Source: Marsupella aquatica (taxonomy: Eukaryota > Plantae > Marchantiophyta). From it: DNA of 64,000 bases. Shown here piece by piece: positions 6,586-52,013 of the stretch. The position numbers and the translations under genes are program-made. Every line of letters starts with the position of its first letter. Within the stretch, counting starts at the first letter, position 1. Location of the stretch: positions 15,468,645 to 15,532,644 of the forward strand of contig OZ316893.1 in the NCBI GenBank assembly GCA_973895155.1, in the 5' to 3' direction. The notes below the pieces were generated by a model that did no database searches, had not been told where the DNA came from, and worked only from the letters and a program-made list of their open reading frames with translations.

Positions 6586-6894
6586 CTGGGGGCTTCAATC
6601 CAAGGGATGTACCATCTCATGCGTGAAGCTTTCAAGTAATAAACACCCTAAAACTTAATAAAATAAAGTTAGTAGATTTAAAATATTTTTAACCCCTAAC
6701 TTTAATGAATATTCTAGGAATATTCTCACATTTGGTATAAAACCTTAAGTTCTTATAATTCTCAAAATTGGATTAAAACAACCCAAATTTTTTTCAACAA
6801 ATTTTTTAAAGTCTTCCGTGCAATTGAATTAAAAAACCTCTAATTAACTTCTTTGCGCGAGATAAGTCGGAAGAAAAAAAGTGAGGACCCTGGG
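6586..6894. mobile_element. ~309-bp MITE, same family as 37817-38113
   Basis: Ends are ctgggggcttca...gtgaggaccctggg. The interior is colinear with the reverse complement of 37817-38113. Flanking 8-mers gctttctg / cctttttg match at 6 of 8 positions (eroded TSD). Confidence 0.7.
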
Positions 6895-20649: not shown

Positions 20650-21828
20650 TTAGTCGAAGCGACTATCCTCCACAGCTAGATAAATCTGGCATTTGAAGAT
20701 GGACTTCCTGAGTCGAAAGCCAGGACAAATCATAAAGCCCACCTTAGAGACAAATCGCTCATCGTCATGGATTGACACGACACTGTCCATGTATTCTGTG
20801 TGCAACTCGGTTTCCTGGCTAGGTCTAAAGATCCCGACATGAGTTTGAAAGGAATAGGAAAGTTTATGCAAAGACCAAACTCTCTTCGCCACTGCTGAAA
20901 AGCTTTCCATCAGCCGAACTGTTGCCTCCCCAGCTCCTGGGCTTTCAAGAGCATTAATTGAGAGGTTCGCGACGGTAGCCTGATCAGAAGATTGCCACAA
21001 GGACAGGAAAACTCGTATTTTTTGACGACGGAATTCCTCAAACCAGTCCTCCGCACGCTTATCAATAGCAGAAGCATTAACTTCTAGAAGCTGAAAATAC
21101 TCAAACGACTTCAGCCTCCGTTCGGTCTCATCCAGGAAAATGGAGGTACCTCCACAGCAAAACATCTCGTTCTCAAAATCTCGGAACAGTGTTTCAAAAG
21201 TCCAGGCCCTGAGCAGGTATGTCACATGACCCGGTCGTGCGAGATACGCGTTTTGAAAATGCTTTCTCAGACCGGAATTGACTTTATCCAGACTATGCAT
21301 CCTAGCATACTGAAAAAAGACTTTAGTGAAACTTGCTGCAGCAGTCTGTATGGCATTTAGCGAAGTTTCAAAAATGAAGGGTGTTGCTGCACCATCCGTG
21401 TACGACCCACACCCTTCTAATTCTTTGCATAGCTGCTGCTGCATTTTGGCCACCTTTGCTTCTAATTCGAGTCTGACTTGCTCACCTTTGATGGCATTGC
21501 TTTCGAGTCTCTTGATCTGTTGATTGTTGTCACTCAATTGTAACTGGCATGAATGAAGCTCTTCCTCTAGAAGCATCCTGTCATCATTCTGCTCAACAGC
21601 AGAGTCGGGGTGGCTCAGTTTGGCTCGTTTCCCGGTGGACGTTTTCTCGGCTTCAATTCTCTTTTCATTGCCACTGGAATTGAACTCACGAACACTTCTG
21701 AACTTCTCATCTGCTCCGGAGCCCGCGTTCGAAGTTGGAAGTTCTCCCGACCTTTTCGTTCCCGCAAGACGTGTCTGAGCTCCCTCATTGCCTATTTTAT
21801 CTCCACAGTGCCCGCCACAGTGAACCAT
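20650..21828 (-). CDS. GIL1/IRK-interacting (DUF641-family) coiled-coil protein
   Basis: Long ORF with a central coiled coil and the family C-terminal motif WSLHKLSYSF...IF...YMDSVV...VGFMICPGFRL...KCQIYL. The likely start is ATG 21828, just after a splice acceptor (ttacag near 21841). Probable 5' UTR exons lie at ~22100-22420. Confidence 0.8.
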   Translation of the reverse strand: MVHCGGHCGDKIGNEGAQTRLAGTKRSGELPTSNAGSGADEKFRSVREFNSSGNEKRIEAEKTSTGKRAKLSHPDSAVEQNDDRMLLEEELHSCQLQLSDNNQQIKRLESNAIKGEQVRLELEAKVAKMQQQLCKELEGCGSYTDGAATPFIFETSLNAIQTAAASFTKVFFQYARMHSLDKVNSGLRKHFQNAYLARPGHVTYLLRAWTFETLFRDFENEMFCCGGTSIFLDETERRLKSFEYFQLLEVNASAIDKRAEDWFEEFRRQKIRVFLSLWQSSDQATVANLSINALESPGAGEATVRLMESFSAVAKRVWSLHKLSYSFQTHVGIFRPSQETELHTEYMDSVVSIHDDERFVSKVGFMICPGFRLRKSIFKCQIYLAVEDSRFD

Positions 21829-23136
21829 CTTTTGAAACACCTGTAATACAGAAAGACATCTTAGACTACATTCGTTATACATATTTGAGTGATCACTCGG
21901 CTTCCAACTAGATATAAAGTTGGTCGATAGCAGTTGTTGGAGCTTCCACATAAGGCAGAATCTATGCTCCGTATATGCTCCGTATATGCTCAGATAGATG
22001 AATACAGGACGTGATTAATTGGAATTGGATACCACAAACTCGTACATATGGAGGCCATGTAATGTGAATGTGAGCTGTGTGAAAACGAAACAATCATAAG
22101 AGTACCTTCTCTAGGAAGGGGATAGTTTTCTTCGCGTAATTCATCGAGACAAAAGGAAGTTTGGAATAGTAGGGCAAAACGTGCACTATCTCCAATTTAA
22201 TTCAGCTCCCTGTTTTGACTCTCGTCAGATCAAAAAGTGTGATGGTGTCTTGATCAGCCTGCCTGCAGAATTAATGAAGACCAAATTAACGATATTGAGC
22301 GAAGAAGCGCTTGGAAATGTACGTACCAGAAGCTTAAAGTCTTTGAAAATTGAACAGAAGCGAAAAACAGGCTCTAATATCGGAACAATGAGGTAACTGA
22401 TAATGAGATCGTTCATGGGGAGCGAACTCTAGGACACTTGCCGAGTGAGCGCGAGCACAGAAGGATCCAGAACTAGTCAGTCATTGAAAACCTTCAAGGT
22501 CTCAGATTCCAGAGCTGAAACTTCCTCGACGGCCTTTCTAAGGCCGAGTTGAGTTCTAATCGTGGTGCATGCCTACTATTTGTCAATTCGATCATATCGC
22601 TTTGCTGCTTCCAGGTCTACAACTAATCTACCATACGTACAATCAAGCTAAAAGTACCGGCTCCTCGAAAATTCGATTAATTCACTTCAGACAACCGTGA
22701 ACCTCACGATGGCGGTTGTACGTGTACGTTTAGTCTGTACCTGAGGTACCCTAGCCTCATACTTTCAATGATTACATCAATCACCTCAAGTCAATTACAG
22801 CCACGGCGGCGACAACGTACAATGGTATGTTGGAGCCAGTCGTGCTAGCCATGTCTTCATGATACCGTATAGTCTTTTGATCCGGTCGACCATGATGCAC
22901 ATGGCATCGATTTAACCTAAGCATCACATCGTGGCATCATTTTGAATTATAAATACTCCTTTTTGTAATTGAGGAAACACTCTAGCTCGGTGAGACATGA
23001 TATGAGTCCGAAACTTGCCGCTGGACCAGTCTTTTCTTAGAAGCGGATTTTTGCAGACAGAAGAAGGAACAAAGTAGGCAATTAGCCATCTATTCCCAAC
23101 TTTCGGCCTCGTCGTCAGGTCCTGGTCTTCGCGAAA

Positions 23137-24984
23137 ATGAATCTTCTGAGCATCAGTAGATCGAGGGCCAAAGTGGTTGTCGGGGTAGATTTCGGCACTA
23201 CGTTTTCTGGATTTGCGTTTGCTCTCACGTCGAAGCCGGATGAAGTGCACAAATTCTACGAGTGGCCTGATGTGGGAGCGGCAGGAGGAGTGAATTATTG
23301 TAAGACACAGTCGAGTATGTTGTACGAAGCGGGACAAAGTCCAGGTTCCTACGTCTTGAAGGACTGGGGATATTCCGCACTTGTCCAACATATGCGGGGA
23401 ATTAGACCTCAACGGCCCGAGCAGATAACTTCCGGCGATAATGCGCTTGGCATTACAAATCAACTTCTTCCAGTTCCTGGACAGGAATTTGCAACGAGAC
23501 CGGCGTCATATTTTCTCACTTTGTTCAAGCTCCATCTGGTCGAATCTGGAAGGACATGTACAGCACCGGCAGAGCTTCCGGAAGGTCTCACAGTAAGGCG
23601 AGTCATCTCCGACTATCTCCGCAAGCTCTCGGAGTTTGCAATGCAAGCAGTCCAAAGTCGCATGGGCGCTCACATCACGATGGAAGATGTGCAATGGTGC
23701 CTCACTGTCCCTGCAATTTGGGATGATCGATCCAAACAAGAGATGAAAATTTGTGCATCCATGGCGGGCATGACGAAAGGTCCAGATTGTCCATTGGATT
23801 CTGCGGAATCCGCAAGTCCACATCCTGTGATAATTGTAATAGAGCCAGAAGCTGCATCCTTCTATTGCCAAAAGAAGGTTCCGTTGGGTCTCAGTGAGGG
23901 AGACAAGTTCTTAATCGTCGACGTTGGTGGAGGAACTGTCGACTTGGTGCTGCACCAGAAAATCGGTGCAGGCTCCGGCCTGAAGGTCCGAGAAGTGTCC
24001 CCAAGTTCTGGTGGGCTCTTCGGCGGATCGTTTGTCGACAAAGCTTTTTTTAATTTTCTGAGTCGGAAGATCGGCTGTTTTAATGAGTTTGCTCGGACTC
24101 ATACCGACTCAGTCCTTAAATTGAAGGGTTGGTGGGAAACCATCAAGTATGGATTCAATGGAAGTATGCACTTCCCCTATGACTTGGAGCTGCCAGCTCG
24201 CCTGGCGCGCGCATGGGAAGAGCATGAGTCTTCAAATAGCATACTTTCCAACATGACAGGCTCTTATGATGCTATCGAGTTATCCCTTGGAGATATGCTT
24301 AGTCTATTTGATCCGGTAGTTGATGAGATAATCAAGCTCATCGAGTCCATCATGATACCAGATTTGATGGCAATGATGATAGTCGGAGGTTTCTCAGGCT
24401 CTCCATATCTGATCGAAAGAATCAAGCAAGAATTCTCTACGAGAGTCGGAGCTATTGTGTTTCCGGACGAGCCAGGAGCTGCAATATGCTGCGGGGCAGT
24501 GTTGTTTGGGGTATATGGAGCAGACCTTGTATGTTCGAGGAAGTCGAAGAAAACATATGGGATCGACACTACTCGCCGGTTTTCCTCAGATGATCCTCGC
24601 CATTTGATGTTTCAGGATGACAATGGAGAAGCACTCTGTGCTGACGTTTTCTGTGCATACACAAAGACAAATGACGAAGTTCCGCTCGATCACTGTGTGA
24701 GTCACAGATTTTATCCTGTCAGTAAAAGTCAGACTGGGATGTCAATCAGCTTATTCTCAACTGCAGATCCTAATCCGAAATATGTGTGTGACCCTGGAGT
24801 CACCAAAGAGAGTACTTTCAGCATTACCTTCCCTAACGAGATCGAGCTAGGTAAAACGCCAGAAGTTTTAATTTCCATGTACTTTGGTCGCACCTTAATT
24901 GAAGTGGTAGCAGAGGGCCAGAACTTCGGCACCGGAGAAACTTTCAAAATGCCGAAGGTGAGTTTTGAGAAAAGCTTCGACTGA
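23137..24984 (+). CDS. Intronless atypical Hsp70 / actin-like ATPase of the HSPA12 type (615 aa)
   Basis: Motifs VGVDFGTTFSGFAF, WCLTVPAIWDD, IEPEAASFYC, IVDVGGGTVDL, GGSFVD, VGGFSGSPYL and YGI, with no C-terminal EEVD, are characteristic of the HSPA12-like subfamily. Confidence 0.9.
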   Translation: MNLLSISRSRAKVVVGVDFGTTFSGFAFALTSKPDEVHKFYEWPDVGAAGGVNYCKTQSSMLYEAGQSPGSYVLKDWGYSALVQHMRGIRPQRPEQITSGDNALGITNQLLPVPGQEFATRPASYFLTLFKLHLVESGRTCTAPAELPEGLTVRRVISDYLRKLSEFAMQAVQSRMGAHITMEDVQWCLTVPAIWDDRSKQEMKICASMAGMTKGPDCPLDSAESASPHPVIIVIEPEAASFYCQKKVPLGLSEGDKFLIVDVGGGTVDLVLHQKIGAGSGLKVREVSPSSGGLFGGSFVDKAFFNFLSRKIGCFNEFARTHTDSVLKLKGWWETIKYGFNGSMHFPYDLELPARLARAWEEHESSNSILSNMTGSYDAIELSLGDMLSLFDPVVDEIIKLIESIMIPDLMAMMIVGGFSGSPYLIERIKQEFSTRVGAIVFPDEPGAAICCGAVLFGVYGADLVCSRKSKKTYGIDTTRRFSSDDPRHLMFQDDNGEALCADVFCAYTKTNDEVPLDHCVSHRFYPVSKSQTGMSISLFSTADPNPKYVCDPGVTKESTFSITFPNEIELGKTPEVLISMYFGRTLIEVVAEGQNFGTGETFKMPKVSFEKSFD

Positions 24985-29312: not shown

Positions 29313-32300
29313 ATCTCCCCCTTGACTCTGGTCTAGGGGAGGGTAAAGACTGCAACCTATATGATTGCTCAGCGGGAAGTTCTGGAAAGAAAAACCAAAC
29401 CGGTTTTTCCCTCTTTATACGAGAGTAGACCAGAACTAAGCCGTAGCCTATACAAGGAATGAGCAAGAGCATATCTCAGTATCTACACAAATGTTAAGTA
29501 ACCATACTTGTGAGGCAATTGCAAAACCTGCAACGCATCACGGTGTCTAGAAAAACTCTCCAAAGGAATCACTTTGGTAAAAGCGTCAGCCGGGTTGAGT
29601 TTACCGTCAATCTTGACTACCTCAAACATATTATCAGACATTGCTTGCCTGATAAAATGGTACCTGACGTCGATGTGCTTCACTCTACTGTCCATCACCT
29701 GGTTCACAGCAAGGTGGAGCGCACTCTGACTATCACAATGGAGCTTCACATTCCCCTGTGGCAATCCCATTTCAGTGATCAGTCTATCCAACCAAATCGC
29801 TTCCTTTGCTGCTTCTGCTGCTGCAACATACTCCGCTTCTGTAGTAGACTGAGCAATACACTTCTGCAAAATAGACCTCCAACTTATGCATCCACCTCCC
29901 AGTGTGAACACATAACCTGTTGTTGACCTCCTCCGATCCAGATTCTATGCATAGTCAGCATCTACATAGCCCATCAATGATCTAGCATTATCAGCATGTG
30001 CATCAAACAATAGACCATGATCCACGGTACCCTTCAAATACCGAATAATCCACTTCACTGCTTCCCAGTGTACCTTCCCTCGATTCAACATGTACCTGCT
30101 CACCTTGCCCATAGCCATGGCAAGATCAGGTCTAGTGCAAGTCATCAAATACATGAGACTCCCCACTGCCTTGTCATACAAAACCTTTGACATCAACCCC
30201 TTCTCAGTGTCATCTGTAGGACAGAACGCTGATGATAACTTGAAGTGTGGAGCCAACGGGGTACTTATTGGCTTGCTAATCCCCATGTTGAACCTTGCAA
30301 TTACCCCTGGGCCCTTAGCGTTACTAATACAGGGAGGAAGTGCGAACGACGCAAGGGTATTTTTAATGTAATGCAAACTAATTTTTATAATAATTTTTAA
30401 AGTCGGCAACATCCCTATATATACATTTGACACAATATTAGTAATAAGGCTCTTATCAAATACATGTCACATTACTCTTATGCAAGGGTACCCAAAATGT
30501 CAAGGACACGCATCACTATATGGTTGGTACACATGTCATGACTTCATTGGCACACCTGTCCATATAGTAAATCACACATTTAATTATTTGTTCTCCTAAG
30601 ACAAGTTTGTGTGCCCCCTTATGGTGGGACAAATGGGTTTTAGTAGACATGTTTACTCGCATTTTTAGGAGTTGAGTCGGGAGTTGAGTAAATGTTGGGT
30701 CGGGATCTTTGGGTCCAACTTGGTTGGGGCGGGGGTTGGGGTTTAGGGATTGATGGGGGATTGATGGGGACCATGGATCAATACCCCCTCCATAGCACAT
30801 AAACAAACAAGATTACTTTTGAAATGGGTTCAATCAAACGGCCAGGTGTGTTTGTGTGTGTGGGGTGGGGGTTTTGTACTCCCTTATCATTGGGGTGAGG
30901 GAGGTATCGGGGGCTGGCCACATTGGGGTTCACACAACAGGGTTTGCGTGACCCTCCCTTGCATTCCCCCTGCTTCTCTGCAGTTTAGGTCGTTGGATTT
31001 TAGACTGGCCATAGCGATCATTTGCTTGTTTGGGCCGGGGTTTGGGCTGCATGCGGCGTTGGATTTCAGACCCGCCATAGCTATGTTTGTTTGTTAGGCT
31101 ACACGCAGGGTCCGTCCCATGTGTATTCTCTGCTCTTGCACACAGTGAACTTATTCTTTCGGCTCCTCGCTTGGCAAAGTGAGTGCATGCCACCCTCTTG
31201 CTACCCCGGGCTTGCTACTTTGCGCGGTTGCGTTAACATGTACATGCCGTGATCTGATGTAACCTCTTTTGATACAGGTTTTAAGGCGGGTTTTTATTTC
31301 AGTCTTGTGTAGCTGACAGTTTTTGCACATGTTCTCACACAGGGCTTTTGGTTGGTGGACTCGGTGAAAGCCAAAGTGCAGGAAGCAAAACCTGCAGAGG
31401 AAGATGCTCGAGCTTGGAAGATATTGCTTTGCATGATCTCTTTTTGTCAATGTAAGTGTTTTGCCAAAAAGCAGCAAAATGCTTCTGAAGATGAGCTTTT
31501 TTATTGCAGATTGCAAGCAATCCATTCTGCAATGAAGCCAGCAACGAAGTAACCTGCATTTGGACAGCGACCCGGGACAGCGATCAATCGATGGCTTGGC
31601 ATGGCGTGGCGTGCGCAAGGAGTAATGCTGTAAGATGACGAGGACCCAAACATTGTAAAGAATATTGAGGGAAGGACGAGGGGAAGGAGCCCTCAATACG
31701 CAAAACGACAGCAGTTGAGTCCAATCATTCATTTGAACTGCCCCCGGAACTGCCCCGATAATTGCATGTTAACAAGTGAGTTGCTATTGACTTTTCAACA
31801 AACAGTTCTTCCATTTGTGATGTTTGTGTCGAGGAGTTGGGCTTGACTTGTCTGCAACAATGCTTACAGTGTACTCGTAGAATGTTTTGTGGCGAAAGAG
31901 ATAGAATGTGTGGTCTGCGTCAATGTTTTCCTTGTTTCGATCAGGCTATCTATTTTCTGAGCCCAACGTCATTTCCATAGCTTTCCTATTATTTAGTAAC
32001 GTAAAGAGCACTGAAGTAGCTCTTCATTTGCTTGGGAATGTTCTATTTCATTGAGACCAGACCAAAGTTTGTGATGGCGCGCTTCCGCTTTGCTACTGCT
32101 GGCGAACATGTTTGTCGAGGATGACAGTAAACAATCCCATTAGTGAGAAGCACAGTTTTGGCACGAGGCACAGGAAGAACCTCTTATATGTGATCAAGGA
32201 TAGCCTCGTTTTTGGGAACCAGTCCGTCAAGCACTGCTCGGCCATCGTGTTCGTCCCCACCACCGTATGTCACTCCTCCTCACCTTGTCACAGAGTTGCG

Positions 32301-33243
32301 TTCTGTGGCTATTTGGAAATTCCTTCATTCATTAATTCCTTGCATGATTTATTAATTCCTTCATTCATTGAAGGATTTGCCTTAGGCAAGAAGGCAGGCA
32401 GGAGTCCCGACAGGAGTTTGTCAAAGGCTACGGGCCACAGAGGAGAAGAGCTAAACGTAGGGGAGAGAGGTAGATCGAGAATCAGGGAAGAGTGTGTGGC
32501 ATCAAAAGAGGTCAGCAAGTATGGACAATTTCATTGTGACAACACTCAGTTATCTCTACTCAGTTAGAATATTGACCAATAATATCTAGTAACTAACTGT
32601 CACTGCGTACATGACAGGATCTAGTCGGAGTTACATTAGCTAGAAGACAGTTTCTCATTGAAGGACGGTCGGCGTGTTTGACAAAAACAGATGTAAGCCA
32701 CTATATTCCTCAATGTATCACACTATAAACCCTTCTGCATTTCCTCAACTTGGATCTGATGATTGCGCATTGCATACTGCGCGACTTTGTTAGTTGTGTA
32801 CCACTGCATTGATTCTATGCCTTTTGTGCCTCTGAGTCTACCATTGTCTTAAAGCCTCAGTCTTCGCTATCTTCTCCGTTGCATTGCCTTCTTTTGGTCA
32901 ACATATCGCTCCAACTACGTTTGGGATTGCAGTGACTGTTACGTGTTCCTTGCAGGTTCCAAATTGACTTCCACAACCTCTGCTTTTGTCTCATTATGGA
33001 AGGTGAAGTTTCCACCATTCCCAGGCATGTTCTTTAAGTTCTTGTTGTCTGTCAAATTTCGGGTAAAATTGTTTATTCTCGGAACACCATCAGTGTAGTT
33101 GAAGTCTACAACATGCGTGCCATGATCGCCATAGTGGGCGATGCTTGAGGCGAGCCGCATCCACATGACATGAATCTTGCGAGATTCATTAAATTAACAT
33201 ACATAGAGCAGTCCAGACGTATCAGTTCAGGGTCCAACCGTAC

Positions 33244-34021
33244 CTATGGACTGGGTAAAGAGCTCTGCTCTAGCTGTATTTAACCCTTGAAGATGAAGTT
33301 CTGGGTAATGCCCTTCAACTTCAGCGACAGCTCCAATCCGATCGAAAAGCGAAATTCCAGCTCCAAAATCTTTCAGCTTCCATTCAGTCCAGATTTTGAG
33401 TCCATTGTCGGCCTTTGCCAATCTCCACCCTACAATTCCTGTCCGGGTCATCGTAACAGACTTGATTTCACATGAAATTATTTTGTGCTGAAATAATACC
33501 TGAATTAACACTGTCGTCAGAAGGTCACATATTTTTGCAATTGTTCTTTCAATTGCTTCTCTGCAACCAGTCACACTGAACGGTAAACCCAGAAGCAAAT
33601 GGCCAATCATTTTGGGAGAATTGAGCTAGAAACACTATTATATAAAGTGAGGCTCAGCGTAGAGACCTTGCGAAGCAATGCCGTGGCTTCCTCCTCAGAC
33701 AGAGGAACAGTCCCTAGCTCTAGCGGCGTGTAGTTCCTCTCCGACAATCCCAGCAACGAGGGAGGAATTAGTATAATATGCTTAGTACCCTCATTGCCAA
33801 GACTTTTCTCACCAAAATTCCAAAGATGGCCACCGCGCGAGAGTATTTGACGACAAGTTGTAGTTGTGCACCCCACGAAATGAAGCCGAGCTCAAAGAGG
33901 CGAGCGCTGAGGGGGACGAGGAGGACGAGGACGTCGCTCTCGCACGGAAAGAAGGTGATGAAAGGGCGGGCGAGTGGCGAAGCAAACTGCTGGAGCAGCA
34001 GATCAGGGACGCAGCAGCCAT
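33244..34021 (-). pseudogene. RAF2: Captured fragment of Rubisco accumulation factor 2 (RAF2/SDIRIP1, PCD-like protein)
   Basis: Transit-peptide-like MAAASLICCSSSLLRHSPALSS..., then after a frameshift or deletion NFGEKSLGNEGTKHIILIP...PLSEEEATALLRK, an apparent intron (donor 33666), and IVGWRL...LKIWTEWKLKDFGAGISLFDRIGAVAEVEGHYPELHL...ARAELFTQSIG ending at a GT donor (33243). No final exon is recognisable. Confidence 0.8.
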
Positions 34022-35684
34022 AGCTCGATTTCCTTCAGCTTTGTAGATCTCATCGAGCACCGCTTCCTATATTCTCTTCGCCTTCTCTCTGCCTCCTACA
34101 CACAATCATCCGGGGAGTGTTCTTTTATTTGGAGACTGTAGAGGGCTCCAAGTGATTTCAACCCGGTTTGGACTTGTCCCCGGCTCAGTCCAACTTTGCC
34201 CAGTCTAGCAGACTATCTCTTTCGCTGGTTTATGAGATCAATTTTCTCCAAGTCTCCAGCTGCTCTACCTTGGTATCCACAACTTGACGCCAACGTACAG
34301 TAGTTGGCCGGTATTTTTGGCAGTAGCAGGACTAAAATTATCGTAGAATAGATGCTAAACTATGGTATCTTGTTGATATTTTGTAAGATTCTCTTTGTTG
34401 GTGGATTTGTACAGGTCTTGAAGTTTAATCAAGATTAGAATACTATCAATGAATGCCACCCCTGGTCAAGTTATTCTCGGCACTTCTATACTATATTACA
34501 GGTTTGTTTTCTAATTGCTTGTTATCTCTGTTTTGTCAACTGCCAAGAAGTCCAGGACTGTGGCTAATGCTTTTTGCATCTCCATTCATTCATTGTTGTT
34601 TGTCTGGAGCAGGCTTGTTGTTGTCGACTTCCAATGTGGATCTAGTTTCCGTCCCTGACCCGTTCAAGCAGCCAATGCAAATACACAAGTAAGTAAAGAA
34701 TCAGTGGTGCCTCTTCTTGCAGTCAGATGCCCTACTTTCATTTTGCCCTGCATTCCTGATTGTACGTTGTCTCTTGTACTGTCGATTCATGCTTGTTGTC
34801 TTGTATGAATCCGCTTACAAACAGGGCTTTGTGTGTTTGCTCAGGTAAGCATTTCTTTATGTTTTGTGAATTAGGCTTTGTCTTTCTGTTGTAGAAGTAG
34901 GACCGTTTGCAGGTCCCATCAAATCCAAGGAGACCATTGGGGAAGTAATGCCCTCAGTGGAGATTGTCAGATTTCATCCCTGACAATCTAGCGCTCTTTG
35001 GAGGCGAAGCAGGTGCAGGTAGCCTGGGAGGGGGGGGGGGAAGATTGCTTAGAGCCTTGCCAGATAGGATTTGGGTGGTCCATGGAATGTTGCTATTCAT
35101 GAATGGTCGAGCCTCTCTGAGCGAGTCTGTGAGTAAATAAATTTTGATCAGCCCATTGCACATGTCGAGGAGAGGGATTGGAGTGATGGGCCTGGCCCCG
35201 ACTGCACATGGACCAAGCACAGACTGGGACAAGCTAATATGTTGGGACAAGCTAATTCAGGACAAGCTTAAATGGCCATGTGCAGATCTCATACTCTCTT
35301 GTGCTTACGCTGAAACCAGAGTCCTTGCATGCAAAGGGTACGTCCCTTCCCACCCGAAAGGAGAAAGCTGCAATGGATCTTAGACAAGCCAATTACCATG
35401 AGAAATGGCCGGGATGGGGCAAGGCCCTTGTGGAATTGGTCTGGTGGATGCCGTCTTGACATATGGGCTTCCTTAGGCTACTTGTAGGAGGCCAAAACTT
35501 CCCAAATCCCCATGTTGAGCAATGTCATTGAATGGGTTGTTACAAAGTAACCCATAATTGGTTGAAGTGTTATGATTGTGTCCATTTTGATTGTGGTGCT
35601 TCTCTCTTGTCTTGTGCTATGTTTGCAGGCCTATGCCCCTAGCATATGTCAATTGGTTAGGGAATTAAACGTTGGACATAGAGG

Positions 35685-38600
35685 ATGCCGCCTGCCACTG
35701 TATTTCAAGCAGACTCTGAGTCAGGGGAACGGAAACCCCTGACATCATATAGCTACAAGATAGGTGAAACCTTTTATGATGCTAGAAAGAACTTGGAGTC
35801 AGGTTTTGACTTCGAGTTCCATTTCATGGACATCAACCTTGCTTGTAGAATGTTGGAGAAATTTGAGAGGTATAATCTGGTAGAGGATTGTGGTGGGAAG
35901 ATTGTCATTATCCCAAAATACCCCAACAATTTTGTCCAAGGAGATGTGCAGAATGGGTCACAACAAGTCCTTGGAAGTAGCCATGCATCCAATGGACCTG
36001 GTAGCACATCTTGTGGTACTCCCACAATAGATGAACCCTCTAACCAGCATGTAGGTGGCGCTCCATCTCAGGAGGCCCAACCTGCAAGTACCCCATCCCA
36101 GGATGGCCAGCCTATTGGTGGAGCCCCATCCCAGGAAGTTGAATCACAAGTCAGCCTAGAGTCTGAATTAATGTCTCATGACCTCAAAATAGCATGGGAG
36201 ACTTCTGTGACGAAGTTGATAGAGTGGATGACTTTTATTAAGTGTGTGGACCACAAATGGAAAGTCAGAACCTGGGACAAGGATGGTGTGCCTCGTGGGC
36301 ATATTGAGTGTTGTGAATGTGACTTCAGATATCAAGCAGTTGCATGTAGCAGTGTCAAGGGTGTGGATAAAACTATGGTCAATAATGTGTTTACAAACTT
36401 CAGAGTGAAACATTTGCCATCAAAAAAGCATGCTCGACGTGTAGCATCTAATAGGGGTGAGAAAGTGGATCACAGAGAGATTTCTCAGAGGGCTGAGGCT
36501 TGTACTCTGAATGATAGAGCCATACTTGATCAACATGTCAAGATTGTGGAGAAGATAAACTCAGCACAAATTGCTGGTGGGCTTGTTGGGTGTGATACCT
36601 TTACAGTAATAGGTGATGTGGACAAAGAGCCCCTAGAGTTGATGAAGTTCAAACTTCGTTGTGAGTTTTGTGCTGAAAACTTGACATTGATTCCAAAACA
36701 ACGCAATTTGGAAACAAATTTGGAAGCCCATGTGGGAGGCTTAAGTCATCTTAACTATGTCATGAGAAGTCAAAAGCCTGCTAGGGGTAACCCAGTGCAC
36801 AGTGGAAGGCCTGGAAGACCTCGTGCACCAGATGGAAGGGATGTGAAACAACAGAAAATAGTTGGGTTCTTAACTCGCCCCTCAACTGGAGGAGCTTCCA
36901 GTTCTAGTTCAAAAGACAAAGGTACTCTTGACAATCTCTCTTTGCTATGCTGGGGTCTCTGGCGTGATGTGGTGAAATATGGTTCAGATACCAGGCCTAT
37001 CAAGGAAATTTTAAATGATCAGCTTAAATTAGATGGGAACTGGTATGCGGAGCCCATAGTGAGGGCAGAGGTGTGGTGTTTGACGACTCAGGAAAACTGT
37101 GTGATCTCTGGTTTATTTAGACACAGAGAGTGTAGACGAATTTCGGAACTTGGTGGTGGGTTTATAGACTTATCCTGTACGCAATGTTTTAGCATAAAAA
37201 CAGAGCAGGACTTTCGACTCAGAGTTTACAGGGAGTACAAAGCTCTTGAAAAAAGAGGTTGTAGAACTACTGGTAAAGGTAGGCGCTTAGACTATTTGAC
37301 TATTCCAGAGGTCCAATACCAAGCTAAAAGTTATAGGAACCAAATTTTGAGAGAACGAAAGTTACAGAGAATCTTGAGTCACAAGCTACTCATGGCAAAG
37401 GCTCTGGTCCCCAGCATTAGTGAAGTGTGTCTTCACTATGAGGAACCAAACAAAGCAACTGTATTGAAATTCTGTCATTCAATAATATTGGCACACAAAC
37501 GAGGTGCCTTTGGTGGGAGAGGAGCTCTGTGGGATATGTTATCAGACATAGCACAGAACATCAATAGGGAGAAGACAGGATATCGTTTTAGGCCTGGAAC
37601 AAAACTTTTTTGCCAAACACTGTTTTTACATGGCGGAAGACGTGTAGTTGATTGTCTTGCAACCAATGGAATTGGTCCCACTCTCAACACCCTTCAAAGG
37701 GATAAGAGAGGCATGGTAGTGTTTCGTGCTGGAATTCATGTAGAGCAATTTCAGTTTATTGCGGAAGTATTTTCCAAATTGAAGGCTCGATTAAATATAC
37801 ATGGACCCATTCCATGCTCGGGGGTTTCACTTCCACAAAAATGGCACATCACGTGCGACGAAGTATAGGGTCGATTTATTGGTTTGAAGGGAAGACTTAA
37901 GAATTTTTGTAGAAGAACAATAGGGTCCTTTAAATTCAATTTTGAGACTTATAAGAATATTAGGGTCTTTTAAACCAAAATTTTGGAATATTCCAAGAAT
38001 ATTCCAACTTTATAGGGGTTGAAAAATAAATTTTTTTTCTTACATTTTAGGGGGTCTGAGGCCTAAAAACGTCGCAGGGGATGGGGAGACATCCATATAG
38101 TGAGACCCCTGAGATTCCATGCTTTTTGGCAGAGGACGAGACTTGTGTGAAGAGGACTGTGAGGTGACTATTCACTGCCTCCTCTTGCTCTAGTCATTCT
38201 TTTCCTTCAGTATGTATTTTTGTGCTACACAAAAATATTGAACAAGAACTAATGAAGAAGCCACCTGCTATTGGTTGCAGATGGCTGCCAAAACATGATA
38301 CTCTTCTTGGATTTTGTGGGACAAAAAAGGATCATGAGTGCAGTGTTGGCTTGGAGATCATAGTGGGGGAAGGAGAAGTTGGCTTCAACAACATTGCAGA
38401 TGCATTTGACAATTATGTTATAGCTCACCAGGCAAGGTGTTTGATAGTAAATGCCCTTGTTGCTGGATTCCCTCGATTGTGCATACTGGGGATGGGCACC
38501 TGTAACAAGTTTGATGCTCCATGGGTCAGGCGACAATGGAACAGCCTAGCCTCACTGTGGACAACTCATTGCCTAGAGTGTGTGGGGCCATTATTGGGTC

Positions 38601-40696
38601 ATGCAAGCGATGGGGATGCACGAAGGAGAAAGCTTATGTTGGAAGACTACTCTGGAAGTGGAATACCAGGGCCAAGGCAGGACCTAAGGTGGGAAGCTTG
38701 GAAATTGACCCACTCTATGACCACTACTGGACCATTGATCCATGCATATGGATTGCATGATCAAGATTTTATTCATAATGGGAAGAAGTTAGTGAACCCA
38801 TTGGATTCTACTTCTCGTATTTTGAAATTAGGAGCGGAAATGGCAAACCTGAGTCACATCATATCCTGTTACAAAGTGTACCTGAACAGTGATCATGGCT
38901 TGAATGAAGAGGACAAGTCAAGGAAAGACAGACAAAATTGGGCTAGTGCACAACGACTCTGTAGTCGCAAAGTACAGTCCTCCTTACGGATGCTTCGCCA
39001 ACGTGGTGATGCAAGAGTTGAACAGACTCTTGGGACAGAAGTTTACACTAGGATATGTGCAGACTACATTGACATATTTCTGAATACTAGTCTGAGTTTG
39101 CGACAGAGGATTGTCCATTGTGGGAAGGTGGGGTTCTTCTTTAGACTATGGCGTCAATGGTGCTTTCATGGAAACCATTCAGTGGGAGGGAATACACAAC
39201 CAATCAGTTTCACAAAAAATTGCATTCCCATGCAAAGTTTCCTTGACATTCAGATGTCAGTTCATTTTGTGGTCCTGTTGGTAATCCAATTCAGAGACAA
39301 TTTTTGACATCTTCCAGTGCCATTGCATTTGACTGGGTCAGATGCTTGTGAGCAGTTTTTTTCTGCTGTAGGAGGTATGAATGGTCATGAACGAAGTTAT
39401 GACTTGGCTGAGTTAGTAGAATGTGCTACCAATCGAAATCGATTGGCTGCAATGGATCTGGCAGAAGGAATGATGGGTGCAGGGAAGAGTCACAAGAAAC
39501 ATGAAAACATTTGGATGAAGCTCACTACAATCCCAGCAGGAATTCCTACTGTAGCAGATCAAATGGACTATATAGGGATTGAAACCAATGGAGAAATAGT
39601 GATTGCACTGCAAGAAGGTTTTCAGCTTGCCCAAAATGCATGCACTGAATTACAAATGAACCCTTCCACATCTTGCAAAGACAAGGTGTGGTGGAATTCC
39701 CCATGGAAGATGGAGGCTAAAGGGGTCAAGTTTGGTAGTTGGTGTGATGTGAATGTTGATACATTAGTAGATGGAGGGACAGATGTGGAGGAATCTGAGG
39801 AAGGTGAAACAACCTCTCATGAGCCTGCATCCTCATCTACTTCAACAGAAGTTGTAGAGCCTGAGGACTCTGAGTTACCTGTCCCAACAGAACAACTTTT
39901 GATATATGTAGACCCAGATGTAGAGGGAGTTGCTGCTCAAATGGAGGCCACCATGGGGATCATGCATTCTGACTTGATATATGGAGCAGCAACACAAGAT
40001 GTGAAGCCAACCGTTGAATACCAAAATCGGTCCATTTACAAAAGTACTTTGGTCAGCCAACTGACCCACAACCCTCTCCTCAGCAAAGACAGATTGACTC
40101 GGATAAAGCAAAATCACTACTTCAATAATTTAGTGGACAAACCCAATGTTAGGGCAGGTGTTCAAACAATGTTTGTAACAGTAGGTTCAGATTGTGGAGT
40201 ACTATTCTTGGATGATACATACAGTGCTCGTGAAACTAGAAGTTCAGAAGCAATTTCACGAACATTGAGAGGAAAAGGACAAAGAAAGAGAGGAAGCAGC
40301 AGATCAGATGATTTTGTTCCAAATCCGAAGAGGCCAAGAGGTGCAGCTGTGGCAATGTATTCAACTACAACACCAAAATATATGTGGTGGATAGGCAGAA
40401 TACAAAGTATACACAAAAAATATGGTGGGAAACAGGACAGAGCAAGAGGTGAATTGGATTTGCTTGATAGGCCTGGTGGTGAGGAGGCATGTAAAATTAT
40501 GTTCCAATGGTTTTCTCCAATTGGAACTAGTAGGCATAAATTTGCCTACAATGTGTGTGATCCACAATTTATCGATTTGGACTGTGTCATATCAACAGTC
40601 CACTTGACAGTGGATCCACTATGCCCAGGAGTTTTTCAATTGCATCCAGATGATGCAGTTTCTCTTGATAATTTTGCCAAAAACAAAATTCAGTAA
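35685..40696 (+). pseudogene. P-element-like (THAP9-related) DDE transposase, ~1,530 codons after repair; disabled by a MITE insertion and one in-frame TGA
   Basis: Joining 35685-37816, 38122-38163 and 38281-40696 (117-nt GT-AG intron 38164-38280; TGA at 39305) gives one frame. Motifs in order: LAEDET, GFCG, HASDGD, DQDFIHNGKKLVN, DRQNWASAQRL, GSDACEQFFS. These parallel the P-element motifs DE, SD, DxxHxxKxxRN and QDxxExFF. Two N-terminal CxxC...H-x5-H zinc fingers. Confidence 0.75.
37817..38113. mobile_element. 297-bp MITE inserted in the P-like transposase CDS
   Basis: TIRs CTCGGGGGTTTCAC / GTGAGACCCCTGAG (12 of 14 match). Perfect 8-bp TSD ATTCCATG (37809-37816 and 38114-38121). Removal restores HGPIPCFLAEDET. 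Confidence 0.93.
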
Positions 40697-41020
40697 TCTT
40701 ATATATGTAACAGGGTAAGCAATTTTCAGTGTTTATGCATGTATCTTTTAAGTTTCTGATTGCTATGAAAGGCTTTTGAATGAGATTTTGATCCTGCCTC
40801 TGACATTTCAATCCTTGTTGGATCACAGAGTTGACAGGGAAATTATCCACCATGTCTAAGTAACAATTTCAGTCAAAGAAGATGTTATGGTATTACTCCC
40901 ATATTTCTCAGTATTGATTTCCTTGTGTTATGAGTATTGTCTAGAATCAATTATTAATGTGTGGTTTGATAAATCAGGTTCAGAAGAAATTGCCAAGAAC
41001 TTTGCCATCATTTGGTGTGA

Positions 41021-41120
41021 AGGATGAAGGCATTACCTGGTTTGGATAGGTCAGGATGAAGGCATTACCTGGTTGGTTAGCTCAGGATGAAGGCATTACC
41101 TGGTTGGTTAGCTCAGGATG
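41021..41120. repeat. 31-bp tandem repeat x3 in the 3' region of the P-like element
   Basis: aggatgaaggcattacctggttggttagctc units start at 41021, 41053 and 41084, with a partial unit at 41115. Confidence 0.9.
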
Positions 41121-44100
41121 GAAGAATTTAGCATGAGTGTATATGCAATTGTTCCTCTAGGGTACTAGAGCATCATATTCACTTTCTTAGATGTAGTATT
41201 AGTTTAGTTCACCTTTCGGCATGATGTCTATAAGTAACCTGATATATTATTATCTGGTACTAGTTTTGTTTACCTATATAAAAGGTGTAGCCTGTGTAAG
41301 ATCAAGTTTTTGATGCAAAACAATATCAATATGCATAATCTATATTTATGATTCTGAATCGTTTGCATGTTTATATAGCATTCATACTTTTAAAAAGTCA
41401 AGGGTGTTTTCAATTATTTGGAAACCTCTTTTATAAGTTACTCAAGGGTCAAATTTAATAGTAAAAATTAATATTTTTATATTAACAAGAGATATTTTAA
41501 TGAAGAAAAAAATATTAAGAAGGGGTACAAGGGGGGGTCTGTTCTCAGGGGGGTTCACTTAATATACTAAGAGTGAGGGCCCAGGGGCAATTACCTTCCT
41601 CGCATAACTGCTCTACGTCAACCATAGCTTGCCAGCCTCCAAGTCCCTAGTGATCTCCATACCCAAAATCCTCTTAGCTGGCCCTAAGTCCTTCATCTTA
41701 AACTCTGCACTAAGTAGTGCCTTGAGCTTAACAATCTCAGACCTATCCTTGGCCGCAATTAGCATGTCATCCACATAAAGTACTAAAACAATGAACCCAA
41801 AGACAACATTCTTTACCGGTTTAAGATACACACATGGGTCAAACACACTCCTGTGAAAGCCTTGTGCATGAATCCAATCATCAAACCGCTTATTCCACTG
41901 GCTTGGTGACTGCTTCAACCCGTACAAGGATCTCAGCAATCTACAAACCAAATCCTCTTGCCCTTTCTTCACAAAACCTAGCGGCTGTCTCATGAAGATT
42001 ACCTCTTCCAAGGTGCCATAGAGGAAAGCTGTGACAACATCCATTTGATCTAGCAACAGACCAAACATAACAACAAGCACACACAATAGCCGTATTGTTG
42101 AGTACTTAGCAACTGATGAGAAGACCTCATTATAATCCACACCTTTTTCTTGTGTGAATCCCTTGGCTACCAACCTAGCCTTGTAGACCTTCGATCCACC
42201 TCCTATGGACTAATCCTTCAGCTTGTATATCCACTTGCTGTCCACCACTTGCTGTCCCTTAGGCAGCTTGACAAGCTCCCAAGTTTTGTTGTCCTTCAGT
42301 GACTGCATCTCCATTTGCATTGCTGCAGTCCACTCCTGCTTCTCCTTTGAAGCACTTGCTTCATGAAATGAAGAAGGTTCACCTTCTTCCAAAATCAACG
42401 CATCACCCTCATCGTCAGTAACAAAATCCTCCTCTTGCAACTGAGATGAATCAACCCACTATCCATACCTTGGTGGAGCGCGTACAGTGCGACCAGATGC
42501 TCTTCTAGCCGATGACTGCGGTTGATCTGCGTGTGCTGGTACAATTTGAAGCTCAACAGCATCCACTTGCTGCTCACCAGCATCAACAAACTCCTCTGGT
42601 TCCTCTGGCACAGGAACCAACTCCATAAACTCCATCAACAAACTCCTTCTCTCCGGTCATGCACCTCATGACCAATCTCCCCCTCAACGAGATCCGGGAT
42701 AGGAGATTTTCCTTTGTCAGTACGGGAGACCTGAGTATTCTCCCCCTCTTTCAATAATCTGGATTCATTGAAGAAAACATCCCTACTGACAACGAGCTTA
42801 CAGGCAATAGGATCCCATAGCCTATAGGCTTTCACACCACTTTGGTACCCAAGAAAAACACATTTTTTGGAGGTAGGATCCAACTTGGTCCTATTCTACT
42901 TTGGTGTGAAAGCATATGCATCACTTTCAAAAACTACCAAGCCATGATAGTCTGCTTGCCGCTTATAGCGCATCTCAAATGGCATTTTGAAATTGATAGC
43001 ACTAGAAGGAGAAAGATTTACCAAATAAGTTGCGGTATTGACAGCTTCTGCCCAAAATTCCTGTGATAAACCTGATTGGCTCAACATACTCCGCGACCAC
43101 TCCAATAGTGTCTGATTGAGCCTCTCAGCGACACCATTCTGCTGCGGAGTATAAACTATGGTGAGATGGTGAGTTATCCCCTGTTCTGAACAGTACTCTT
43201 CAAATTCCACTGAAGTGTACTCCCCGCCGTTGTCTGACCTCAGACTCTTCACCCTTGTATCCAAACACTTGACCGTGTTTCCAGTTTGATTCTCCACCTG
43301 GGCCTTCCACTTCTTAAAAATGGACAAGACAGATCAGACTTAAGCGTCATGAAATAAATCCACACAAATCTTGAGTAATCGTCAATAAATGATACATAGT
43401 ACAACTTTCCAGAGTGTGAGGGAGTTGGGGATGGATCCCACACGTCACTATGTATGTACTCAAGAACCGCTTTGGAACGATGAGTTCCAACATCGAAAGC
43501 ACGACGATGCTGCTTTCCAAGAATGCAATGCTCACAAAACTCTAATTTACAAGATTGCAAATCAGAGATGAGTCTATTCTTCCGTAAGATAGCCAAACCC
43601 TTCTCACTCATGTGGCCTAGCCGTGAATATATGCCACAATTGAGTCATCTCCTTGTGAGACTTGGTTACATTGGCCTCTCCACATACAGTATTGCCTTGC
43701 AACATATACAAATTCTTTTGTCTGCTCCCTGACCTGACTGACTTGAAGTTCACCATCAACAACGCTCCATTGATGACCATTTGAATCCAACACACCGAGT
43801 GAAATCAAATTCTTACGCATGCCAGGTACATACCTGACTCAGACACTGTGCGCACAGTGCCATCAAACATTTGAATCTTCACAGACCCAATACCCTCTAT
43901 TTGACAAGAGTGATCATTTCCCATCAGAACTGAACCGTTTGAAATAGAGTAAGAATGAAAAACTCATGAATGTAACAAATGTGAAAAGAGCAAGCACAAT
44001 CAAGAATCCACACATCATCTACTCTCCGAAGTGACATGCACAGGGCATACCCCTGGCTTCATAATACATACTCATCATTGAGTAAATCATCATCTCCATC

Positions 44101-48180: not shown

Positions 48181-48470
48181 AGTTTCTAAACTTGTGTGTT
48201 ACTCCCGATAATTTTATCGGGTTGAGTATTCATGTGCTTCTTCTTTGGTCATGTGAGTGAATATATCGTTTGAACAGTTTGAATACTAAACCTGATAAAT
48301 TTATCGTTGTCACAGTTTTTCATTACGGTCTTGTGTTTGAATACTGAACCTGATAAATTTATCGTTGTCAGGGTTTATCATTACGGTCTCGTGTTTGAAT
48401 ACTGAACTTCCCCGACACAAAACATTTACTCAACTGACACAATTGACATCATTGTTGTTAGGCGGTTTCG

Positions 48471-51186
48471 ATGGATACTGAGGCTCCATCGACAGTTGAT
48501 GGAGTCGTGGGTGTCGAATCGATACAAAACACGGTAGAACCACAGGTCCCAGTCAATGTACTTGGTAAACGTAGTGCAAAGAAACCTTCTAAGGTAGCAA
48601 CACCTCCTGCATGTGATGAGAAGCCAAAAGCCTCTAGAGGCAAGAATGTTGAGAAGCTCGTGGAGTCTTGGGATACAGCAGAGTTCCAAAAGGATGCATC
48701 TTATTTTGCATTGACGTTTGGACTCCCCGATGAAGGCGAGAATCCGTATAAGATAAGTGATATTCGTGACAATGATTTGGCTGCATGCTTTGGAGAGAAA
48801 AAAAGGAGCGGTTATAAGCTGAATAACTGCGTAGGTGTTCCCATTGAAGACATACTACATCTATCCCAAGTTGTGGATGGGTATGAGAAACCAGTGAATG
48901 GAGTTTTGGCTCATACATTTGTGAAAGGGGCCTACGCTGAGCGAGTTCTTCATAGGAAAGTCAATTGGGCAGGATATGCGGCTGCTAAGCTGAAGGGACA
49001 GATTTTGCAATGGGAGCAAGAGGGGAAAGGTAGGCCTGATGGGCCTCCTTGTGTCTAGAAGCCATGTTTCTACCAACCGCCGGTGCCTGAAGAGTTTGAT
49101 ACAGAGACTAAGGATGTAGTTCAAGCAATTCAGAGAGCCTCCGCATCAACTGATGCATCCAAGGAGTTGAAGATCTGCCTTTGGGATAATGCAGCTGGTG
49201 CGATGGACATCGGGCAGAGCAAAGCGGATACACACTTGTCTTTGGACAGTTTGGACATCCCGAAGGTTCATTTCATTCCTGAAGCTGGGCCCCCTGCACT
49301 GTTATTGGGAATTCTTGACTCTGCAATATTGTTAACAGAGATCCGACTACGTGAGACTCACCAGGATTTTGCTACGGTTGAAACAAGCTTGGAGAGACTA
49401 CATATGTCTATACGGGATCACCCAAGAACGCTTGCAAAACTCAGTGATGATTTCAGAACTAGGGAGATGGAGGTAGCTGAAGTTGGGCAGAGCATAGAGT
49501 CAACAGACAACGCAATTGAAGAACTTACGACTGAGCTTGAGCTAGAGCAAAACACAGAAGAAGTCGAGAACAATGAGGTATTAATATTTGTTGCTTAAAT
49601 TCTTGCTAAGTTTGTTTCTTAGATGTGTAAGAGAATGCATAGCGGAGCCTTTCCCTGAAGTGAAGCGTAATGTACTCTCAAGTATGTCATTGCTAGTTTG
49701 CAGCAACCACATTGTCAATCTATAGTTTTCCATGCTACGTAGCTAGACCTGTATTGCGTTCCGCATTTGTGTAACTTAACAGTGTAGACTGTTAGTCCAA
49801 CAATCAAGGTACTAGAATCTTACAATGGAAAGTGCTTCTTGTCCATGATTACAGGGGATCACTCAGTACACATTCATTTTGGAAGACCGGCTTAAGGCTG
49901 AAAAGGCAAAAATTGTGGAGTTGAAGGAGCGCCAAGGAACCGTTGTGAAGGAGTTGAACACATTGGAGCAGCTCATTGAAGTTGACCGGAAGCGGTATGA
50001 GACCTTGCCAGGGATGGTGGACCGATTGAGAAAAGTGGCTGCAGTACTGGAGTTGAAATTGAAGGAACTCAAGTTAGCCGAGGGAGCTCAAAGGTCTGAA
50101 TATTCTACTTTGGCAGCGGTACTTGGCAATCCGTGTCCGCAATTGAGACCCACCTTTGTTGCAACATCAGCTCATGCAAAGGCAACCCAAGTTACAGTAT
50201 TGGGTTGTCCAGTTTGTTGCAATGGCTATCATTGTTAAAATTGGATCCTAGCATCGTGTGGGCACACCTATCATCCAAGCTGCCTATTTCGTTTGATTGG
50301 TGGTAACTCAGAGACTGCTCCAAAGTGTTTTGCTTGTGGGACACTTTTCTCTAATGATTGGTTGCAAAGTTGGGGCTTGCCCATCAAGGGAGATCCGGAG
50401 CAGACGCGTGTTTCTTACATCGAAGACCTGAAAGAAGTGTACGGGAAGCACAGTATTCATCTTGGAAAACGAAGACAACTTGGAGAGCAAATGCAATATT
50501 TGCAACAAAGGGTACATCTACTTTTGTCTCAACTGCATTGTATTACCTCTCTACTTTGTATCAATCTTTTGTTTGCATTTATCTTCACCTACTGTAGAAA
50601 ACCCATTGCATCGGTTGAACTTCATTGAATTCATAATGCATGGCATGTGTTGACACTTGAAATAATTAAGAGAATATCTCAAGTCACAGTCATCCATCTT
50701 TTCAGATTAGAAGAAATTATGACAAAGTTGAGATTATCATCGATCAGGTGTCAGCATTCAATTTCCTCATTATTAATTTGGTTGTATGTATGTGTCCAGG
50801 AAAATGTCTATGCCCAAACAGAAATCTTCTTGAGTTCTTCAGAGGCTATCTTATGCAAACCGGCTGATGACAGTGAAGACCAGTCATCTAAAATGCCTTT
50901 CTTGACACCCAAAGTGGAGGGTGCGGATTTGAAGAAAAGACCGAGGGCTGTGGGGACTGTGGAATCCGCTAGGAAGGTGACAAGTAGATCTTTGACAAGT
51001 TTAGAGAATAACACGATGCCCTTTAACCCAGAGTCTCCATCTCAAGTTTCCTTCAAGCGGATGTTAGAACTTGTTGAGGCTGTCCCTGGACATCCAAACC
51101 CGGAATTGCCCCCACCTGATGGAGTGAAGAGTGTTTGCTCTAAACCATCAACCAAGTCCAGAAAGAAAATGGGGCTTTATCCTTGA
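48471..51186 (+). pseudogene. Multi-exon TE accessory gene: KVNWA-type domain + coiled coil + RING-H2 finger, with premature stops
   Basis: Consecutive plus-strand ORFs separated by in-frame stops and GT-AG introns. The RING-H2 pattern CPVC...(stop)...SCGHTYHPSC...CFAC lies at ~50205-50340. Confidence 0.65.
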
Positions 51187-52013
51187 GCCTGGAGTTACAA
51201 GCTGGCAAGTTTGCCCACTGATTGGACTGACTTCTATGTAATATCTATAATACAGTTAGTCTTGGGTTGATTTTGAATTGTTGAGTTAGTTGATAACACT
51301 GAGCGTTTGTTCTGTGCAGCAATCATCTCGAGCCAAGCGTGTGTCCTATTTCTGAACATAGTCAAGCAACAGGTTGAAAGGTAACTTTGATCCTTGCACT
51401 CCAAATTTTGCTTAACAATTAGGTAATTTGTGCATGTCCTTATTATAAACTAGGTATATCCTTTGCTTTGGTAGTCTTAGAGTACAGAAGGAACCAGATC
51501 GATTCCTTGAGATTAATGAGACTTCAAGCTGTATAGATCTGATTCAGGACTCCAAGGAGTGGCAGTTCTCTTAGAAGGACTTCTACTCATTCAGAAATGC
51601 AATCTGCGTCCTTCACAAAGGACTGAAGGTCATTCGCCGAGGACTCCTAGTCCATCTCTATGATCTAGGGTCCTTGAGTGTAAGCAAGGTTTGGTCTTTT
51701 CCCAAGGGGATCAACTACCACGTCCTTTCCAAGGACTTGAACTCCTCTGGAAATTAAGGAGTTTGACTCCTTTGGGAAGGAGTTCGTGTCTTTTGGAAAG
51801 GAGTTCGACTCCTTTGGAAAGGAGCCAGAGTCCTTTTTCCAATAATTGGGGTCCTTGGCCTAGTCATTATACTGTGTGCCTGAGCAGTGTGCTTGAAAAG
51901 CGTCAAACTTCAGCGTCAAATTAACCATAGTTTAAATCAATGCACCAAATAGTTTCTCACTCATTTGTAATAGATTGAGTCTCATGCACGCTCCTTTTGT
52001 TGGATTTGTGCAG

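Follow-up and report, generated by a model that had tools for sequence, protein, structure and literature searches.

The analysed window, a 64-kb stretch of Marsupella aquatica DNA (64,000 nucleotides), contains one element with terminal inverted repeats (TIRs) at 30305-41586. It is a single unit of about 11.3 kb, with inverted repeats and a target site duplication (TSD) at both ends (Table 1). The inverted repeat pairs 30299-30326 with 41565-41592, and within the element 11 bp of the TIRs are perfect and 17 of the 22 terminal bases match. The TSD is the 8-bp sequence GCAATTAC; lengths of 7 and 9 bp were rejected, and since symmetric ends come only with the 8-bp duplication, the element was delimited accordingly, with CCC at both ends beside the TSD. 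The element was inserted into a copia reverse transcriptase (RVT_2, E = 7e-52, Pfam), the reading of which resumes on both flanks. Six public sequencing runs were listed for the window, four of them with at least half of its sequence words and none from RNA; contigs of X1, X2, X3 and X5 were compared with it. The element-free joint 30296->41587 was found in contigs of X1, X2 and X5, and in X3 the same joint lies 3 bases further on; as copia is a high-copy family, these joints mark the boundary and not an empty allele. In run X5 (share 0.13) the near-identical pieces span 35396-35841 and 36232-36471, and 30868-33200 is scarcely covered; these data are not counted as evidence, and neither is run X6 (share 0.03), which was left out of the comparison. 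In the right arm of the element, three to four 31-bp repeats are arranged head-to-tail at 41010-41120.

Table 1. Features of the TIR element and its insertion site (window coordinates; a dot marks features given without strand).
Feature	Position	Strand	Evidence or remark
Left TSD, GCAATTAC	30297..30304	.	8 bp; element-free joint
Left TIR	30305..30326	+	11 bp perfect, 17/22 match
Left arm	30327..31100	.	first ~300 bp common to many other copies (contig depth, hint only)
CpG-rich DNA, o/e 0.68, no recognisable protein	31101..33243	.	CpG, Pfam, homology searches
RAF2-type exon 2, aa ~143-207, PCD-like domain	33244..33438	-	Pfam, tblastn; ends at GT donor 33243
Intron 1, retained, GT..AG, 228 nt	33439..33666	-	splice signals
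RAF2-type exon 1, 3' part, aa 92-142	33667..33819	-	tblastn
Frameshifting loss, net 71-80 nt, ~aa 62-91	33820..33844	-	tblastn, controls, contigs crossing
ATG and Ser/Ala-rich transit-peptide-like region, aa 1-59	33845..34021	-	tblastn
CpG-rich upstream stretch, putative RAF2 5' UTR/promoter and putative right end of cargo	34022..34355	-	CpG change-point
CpG-poor leader with splice-like signals, last acceptor 35628	34356..35684	+	CpG, splice signals; 35070-35540 high-copy
P-like DDE transposase gene, ~1530 aa	35685..40696	+	homology, motifs, predicted fold
Nested 297-bp MITE, own TIRs, 8-bp TSD ATTCCATG (37809-37816, 38114-38121)	37817..38113	.	TSD/TIR scan
Transposase intron, GT..AG, 117 nt	38164..38280	+	homology, splice signals
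In-frame TGA, upstream of catalytic Glu motif	39305..39307	+	translation
Right TIR	41565..41586	-	inverted repeat
Right TSD	41587..41594	.	copia RT reading on both flanks

Elsewhere in the window, decayed pieces of a CACTA/EnSpm transposase (Transposase_21, DUF4218 and DUF4216) occupy 53826-60220 on the minus strand, and a SET-domain ORF (59606-60220, E = 4e-6) is located directly upstream of them, possibly representing a CACTA element that carries a SET domain. Fragmented coiled-coil-type ORFs at 48462-52685 on the plus strand, including a RING/PHD-like finger at 50239-50628 (E = 1e-4, below the cut-off), face the CACTA transposase and are perhaps the second gene of that element. Two divergent long ORFs at 20650-24984 encode a GIL1/IRKI C-terminal-domain protein (454 aa, minus strand) and an intronless HSP70-like protein (632 aa, plus strand).

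Inside the TIRs and divergent from the transposase gene, we found a RAF2-type gene fragment on the minus strand at 34021-33244, comprising about two-thirds of the gene (5' part). The minus-strand ORF 33227-33625 matched Pfam Pterin_4a (E = 1.6e-9). Through tblastn with the Calypogeia fissa protein CAM6103737 (P0001, 236 aa), three collinear minus-strand blocks were recovered: aa 1-59 at 34021-33845 (51% identity), aa 92-143 at 33819-33664 (87%) and aa 143-207 at 33436-33242 (86%). Intron 1 sits exactly at the meeting point of the second and third blocks (33666-33439), and a second GT donor follows right after exon 2, at 33243. The intron 1 acceptor (33439) misses the conserved frame by 2 nt; a cryptic AG at 33461, 22 nt upstream, is in frame and would add 8 residues. 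From the ATG to the N92 codon the fragment has 202 nt, against 273 or 282 in two C. fissa paralogues, and the reading frame of the ATG meets a stop after 70 aa. This deletion is no assembly error, because contigs of X1 (33336-34092, 1 difference) and X3 (33207-33924, 3 differences) cross it without gaps.

Neither missing part was found in the element: the last exon (aa 208-236) gave a best score of 30 against a shuffled mean of 31.0, and aa 62-91 gave 32 against 31.9, with a positive control of 140. One X2 contig (30445-33236, 9 differences, 5 gaps) links the left arm to the RAF2 intron-2 donor. With aa 62-91 and the last exon missing, RAF2 activity would be impossible; the predicted product is at most a 70-aa transit-peptide stub, and the cargo is probably non-functional. 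The first-pass annotation of this DNA had described a RAF2/PCD-like fragment between the TIRs, divergent from the transposase, with a transit peptide, two exons and their intron, a deletion or frameshift and no last exon. The identity is borne out by the Pterin_4a match and the C. fissa blocks, and every named part was located by tblastn, splice signals and controls; omitted from that list were the MITE, the stop in the transposase and the intron-1 acceptor lying 2 nt out of frame.

The closest relative of exon 2 was the 236-aa C. fissa protein, with 86% identity, which suggests a leafy liverwort as the host. Over the two conserved blocks (115 residues), the fragment matched two C. fissa paralogues at 100 and 96 residues, the thalloid liverworts Marchantia and Riccia at 74-77, and the other 115 relatives at no more than 65. 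Conservation reaches 90% or more of 121 relatives in 42 alignment columns; the fragment departs from six of these, four times together with C. fissa and twice on its own (V97S and C121Y). Residues unseen among the 121 relatives number 6 in the fragment and 4 and 7 in the intact C. fissa proteins, and most residue differences of the fragment may be species divergence. Where a bacterial PCD has HH, the fragment has HY. Exon 2 searched alone matched no solved structure. Among the 120 listed relatives of P0001, 27 were labelled chloroplastic PCD and one mitochondrial (counted by eye). We take the chloroplastic PCD label to denote the At5g51110 locus, and SDIRIP1 is presumably a synonym of RAF2/At5g51110.

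The PCD-like domain, the transit peptide and the orthology to plant chloroplast PCD-like proteins, all characteristic of the RAF2 type, were each found in the fragment. On these sequence features we assign the cargo to a RAF2-type chloroplast PCD-like gene, the name following PMC5859369, where Raf2 (At5g51110) is described as a protein of the chloroplast whose PCD domain is inactive. The fragment resembles RAF2/At5g51110 as a chloroplast-type PCD-like protein with a transit peptide, but it is incomplete and frameshifted; the Arabidopsis protein was absent among the relatives listed.

The transposase was 53-57% identical to the 1529-aa C. fissa protein CAM6105892, and among its 59 longer relatives the named ones came from Calypogeia, Riccia and Adiantum, together with one eukaryote record without assignment. 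The catalytic motifs EDET, SDGD, QDxxH and GSDxCE align over 28 relatives where covered, and are present in the window. Pfam recognised TNP-like_RNaseH_N in one of the 28 relatives and Tudor in two; the Tudor domain of these two (P0046 and P0053) is PTM/DIR17-like (E = 1e-9). Two C-x2-C...H-x5-H fingers (C2H2-type) and a third Cys/His cluster are conserved in the family. Residues 1-83 are predicted to be ubiquitin-like with middling scores (Foldseek E >= 0.049, VIA Z up to 8.6), and such a predicted front end is unusual for a DDE transposase. Fold searches with the N-terminal model returned no THAP; they returned only ubiquitin-like folds for residues 1-83 and barely probed the other parts. 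The first ~80 residues (35685-35930) had pLDDT above 90, and their best Z, 8.6, was to the USP7 UBL.

Two lesions were found in the gene. The MITE is located immediately ahead of the first catalytic Asp, and contigs of X1 and X2 have the MITE-free joint 37808>38114; the in-frame TGA is the other lesion. With the MITE and this stop, the window copy cannot encode an active enzyme. Two relatives of the MITE, 75-77% similar, end-truncated and in tandem, lie at 6158-6331 and 6684-6892. The MITE bins were very deep in X1-X3, and the MITE, with CT ends and an 8-bp TSD, belongs to a high-copy family, which was possibly moved by a related transposase.

The relation to the P superfamily was examined through a fold model of the relative P0008, which is 51% identical over the query region and was folded in place of the window's own protein. 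The model was built from 54 sequences with pLDDT 84. By VIA-align it matched the Drosophila P transposase (6p5a_A) with Z 24.3 and rmsd 3.6 over 378 aligned residues; the next fold had Z 8.2, RAG 8.0 and Hermes hAT 7.4. Foldseek also ranked P transposase first (E = 1.6e-7). This match is far above RAG, Transib, Hermes and integrases, and the model has the fold of the P superfamily with the helical insertion included. The window transposase has the DDE triad with the D(2)H motif, as defined in PMC3698922 and PMC10045372; DxxH also occurs in hAT, MuDR, Kolobok and Dada. TIRs with a 7- or 8-bp TSD, as in the P superfamily, were present in the one insertion available. Canonical P termini are 5'-CA; the element ends in CC. 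The THAP (C2CH) signature was found in 0 of 30 sequences and no THAP in any of 28 relatives (28/28), and the N-terminal ORF matched no Pfam family at E <= 1. A sequence profile of the transposase family (A1) against the PDB did not reach P transposase by sequence; Atlas neighbours of the transposase include P-transposase clusters with scores of 0.77-0.81, as a lead only.

Since the THAP signature is missing and the ends are CC, the element is, judged with the predicted fold, P-like rather than a canonical P. The first-pass annotation had likewise called the transposase P-like; the call gained a predicted fold, the DDE/DxxH motif and the 8-bp TSD, and found no THAP signature or CA ends in its favour. 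Compared with the P superfamily (P element, 1360/Hoppel, Galileo and THAP9; PMC3698922; PDB 6P5A), the element shares the predicted catalytic fold, DDE with DxxH, short TIRs, the 8-bp TSD and a transposase intron. It differs in having, instead of a THAP signature, a predicted ubiquitin-like N-terminus and two C2H2-type fingers, in a protein of ~1530 aa with 11-13% identity to the fly protein, in CC and not CA ends, and in its land-plant hosts.

The extent of foreign DNA was estimated from CpG content. The CpG observed/expected ratio (o/e) was 0.65-0.76 in 31101-34300, 0.32 in 34301-35684 and 0.21-0.28 in the transposase; counted after C, CpG made up 117 of 737 in 31101-34300 and 52 of 859 in the transposase (odds 2.9, P = 2e-10). 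The best change-point was 34355, with near-equal ones at 34080-34410. Over the whole window CpG o/e spans 0.2-1.0, and the composition argument for cargo extent is suggestive only. By this measure the right end of the cargo probably lies ~330 bp upstream of the RAF2 ATG, and 31101-33243 could be a stub or the rest of RAF2 intron 2 and/or more cargo. The leader with splice signals is probably the element's own and not captured, because it is CpG-poor like the transposase and unlike the cargo. The suggestion that the splice-signal region 34840-35630 belongs to the captured 5' DNA is disfavoured by the same ratio (0.32, against 0.65-0.76 in the cargo). Within the leader, a stretch at 35070-35540 has ~10-20 times the depth of the cargo, is deep in X5 too, and contains short GGGACAAGCTAAT-type repeats.

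An 84-aa ORF at 32942-33193 was considered as a second gene fragment and rejected: its 8 weak hits (E from 2e-7 to 4e-4) were all repeat-bearing, with 3-12 repeated stretches each, and the two of the eight that were inspected are tandem-repeat sequences. This ORF had no Pfam family and no Atlas match, and the remaining ORFs scanned in the cargo region had no Pfam match at the curated cut-off. No RAF2 parent gene was detected within the 64-kb window by tblastn. Scanning for TSD+TIR pairs that enclose the cargo yielded, over 8 settings, 13 weak candidates, where shuffled sequence gave means summing to 7.7; the scan recovered both positive controls (the outer element and the MITE), and the cargo candidates were all less clean. 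With no pair beyond chance, the earlier view of the cargo as having no convincing nested-insertion boundaries of its own held.

Contig depth was used as a hint only and gives no copy number. Depth in the RAF2 bins fell short of the transposase median by a factor of 3.7 to 10.7 in all four runs (4/4); relative to the left arm the factor was 11 to 18 in X1-X3 and 1.4 in X5. The left-arm stretch 30776-31585 had about twice the cargo depth in X1 and X3. Cargo contigs of X2 had depths of 63-74. Among the difference rows listed (40 of 2063), the window allele in X2 had 57-67 in 12 of 22 transposase-region rows, 110-503 in three and 0 in seven, while other alleles had 51-73 per contig in seven tabulated places and 23-30 per contig in three rows. 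Several divergent X2 contigs had depths of 4-20, by which the cargo would be present in about four copies rather than one; this reading of about four loaded copies is weakened by the allele depths near 57-67. As a hint from depth, one loaded copy with several cargo-free sisters is the best fit, with four loaded copies at most, and most family copies may be without the RAF2 cargo.

We consider, with a probability of roughly 65%, that a cut-and-paste P-like element here holds a broken, intron-bearing piece of RAF2, likely copied from host genomic DNA and probably dead. As the intron is retained at the block join and upstream sequence is present, the template was DNA and not mRNA; the retained intron had already led to the proposal of DNA-level capture, which stands. 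In the proposed route, CpG-rich host DNA of up to ~3.2 kb would have entered a copy of the element and come to lie between the left arm and the element's own leader; the likeliest mechanism is gap filling, with a template switch while a break in the element was being repaired. The loaded element would then probably have moved at least once, to the copia site, for which only TIRs and a transposase are needed. Decay of the cargo would comprise the deletion, the splice-site slip, V97S and C121Y, and the MITE and the stop would be later hits on the transposase. We infer the later move because there is no parent in the window and only one stop in the transposase. This one stop in 1513 codons compares with ~4.5 expected had decay lasted as long as that of the cargo (P = 0.06), in a test based on 2 of 38 sites with a 95% range of P from 0.9 to 0.0, and weakly suggests that the lineage was still active while it carried the cargo. 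The proposed capture by a transposase-bearing element agrees with the presence of the gene, although the copy in the window is inactivated by the MITE and the stop.

The anatomy of a left arm, one foreign block and an almost whole element (leader, transposase and right arm) also fits a hybrid like that of Pack-CACTA, a model set out in PMC6379663 and PMC13317346. Two copies inserted near each other, the first upstream of RAF2 and the second within or beyond its intron 2, would have lost their inner ends and moved together by their outer ends, and 31600-33243 could all be one long intron 2. This would require two insertions at an important single gene of a haploid plant, and we regard it as unlikely. 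Template switching is favoured over it because no inner TIR remnant is left (one match to the 11-mer in the element, with 2 mismatches, at 38668) and because the depth steps (30776-31585, twice the cargo, X1 and X3) suggest more than one acquisition. Less probable again is the arrival of the RAF2 piece in a separate non-autonomous element, Pack-MULE-like or Helitron-like, nested in the P-like element. An inverted repeat of 13 perfectly matching bp (31892/34225) lies on either side of the cargo, its right end near the CpG change-point, and with the MITE at least one further insertion is nested in the P-like element. However, the flanks of this repeat match by only 2 bp (TG), its chance occurrence has P = 0.07 under a Markov null and 0.28 under a window null, and its ends show no increase in depth (in coarse 467-bp bins) such as a repeated family would give. 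Helitron ends around the cargo were inspected by eye.

A selected function, in which the RAF2 upstream region drives transcription of the transposase leader or small RNAs of the fragment act on the host RAF2, seems very improbable to us. Its attraction lies in the head-to-head layout, where the CpG-rich upstream stretch 34022-34355 adjoins the leader with splice signals, and in the siRNA action of TE-captured fragments reviewed in PMC13317346. But the leader looks native by CpG, the transposase of the window copy is dead, the cargo is apparently missing in most family copies, and the coding part has two breaks.

PMC8903248 reports captured genes in five plant TIR superfamilies, and the P superfamily is outside the five that it surveyed for Pack-TYPE elements. 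The element shares with Pack-TYPE elements (Pack-MULE, -CACTA, -hAT, -PIF and -Mariner; PMC8903248 and PMC6379663) an intron-bearing host fragment within TIRs, with a TSD, introns kept and a pseudogenised cargo. Pack-TYPE elements as defined in PMC8903248 are non-autonomous and without a transposase gene, whereas the P-like element retains a whole though inactivated one, full-length with two lesions. It acts as a Pack element would, yet that definition leaves it out.

For the single-copy Pack-TIRs of animals a gap-filling route was argued in PMC8277862, and the present element shares with them internal filler DNA, an apparently low copy number and, in the proposed account, that route. The fillers of animal Pack-TIRs come mostly from within 15 kb, according to the same paper, whereas no RAF2 parent was found here in the 64-kb window. 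Drosophila P elements, once artificially activated, are reported to acquire DNA through end bypass and gap repair (PMC8277862); compared with this laboratory capture, the present case arose naturally, in a plant. The Kaonashi (KIU) MULEs, which contain transduplicated Ulp1 (PMC13317346), are likewise transposase-bearing plant elements with captured host coding DNA; their cargo is conserved and probably functional, while the RAF2 cargo here is broken.

A survey of 1007 plant genomes with Pfam profiles, covering 17 superfamilies including P, reported active clusters in seven superfamilies, none of them P (PMC12973397). The transposase family described here would escape Pfam screens, because its Pfam signal is almost nil. 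We found no description of P-like elements of liverworts, mosses or ferns among the titles and abstract openings that the literature searches listed; for Repbase, PMC4455052 gives the superfamilies only, and a prior description or Repbase entry is possible. With the fold as predicted, a P-fold carrier in land plants has likely been reported rarely if ever.

DNA transposons are well known to take up genes, and the RAF2 capture is a further example; what is unusual is the carrier. We might speculate, as a rather doubtful extension, that liverworts and ferns host an undescribed, Pfam-invisible P-related branch in which THAP was replaced by a ubiquitin-like domain and C2H2-type fingers, and that this copy is a natural Pack-P which captured the RAF2 5' end while active, jumped, and set a host promoter head-to-head with the transposase leader. 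The carrier family matters more than the capture, which adds one case. If confirmed, it would widen the range of both P-type transposition and P-type gene capture to early land plants, and would provide an enzyme of the P fold whose DNA-binding front end differs.
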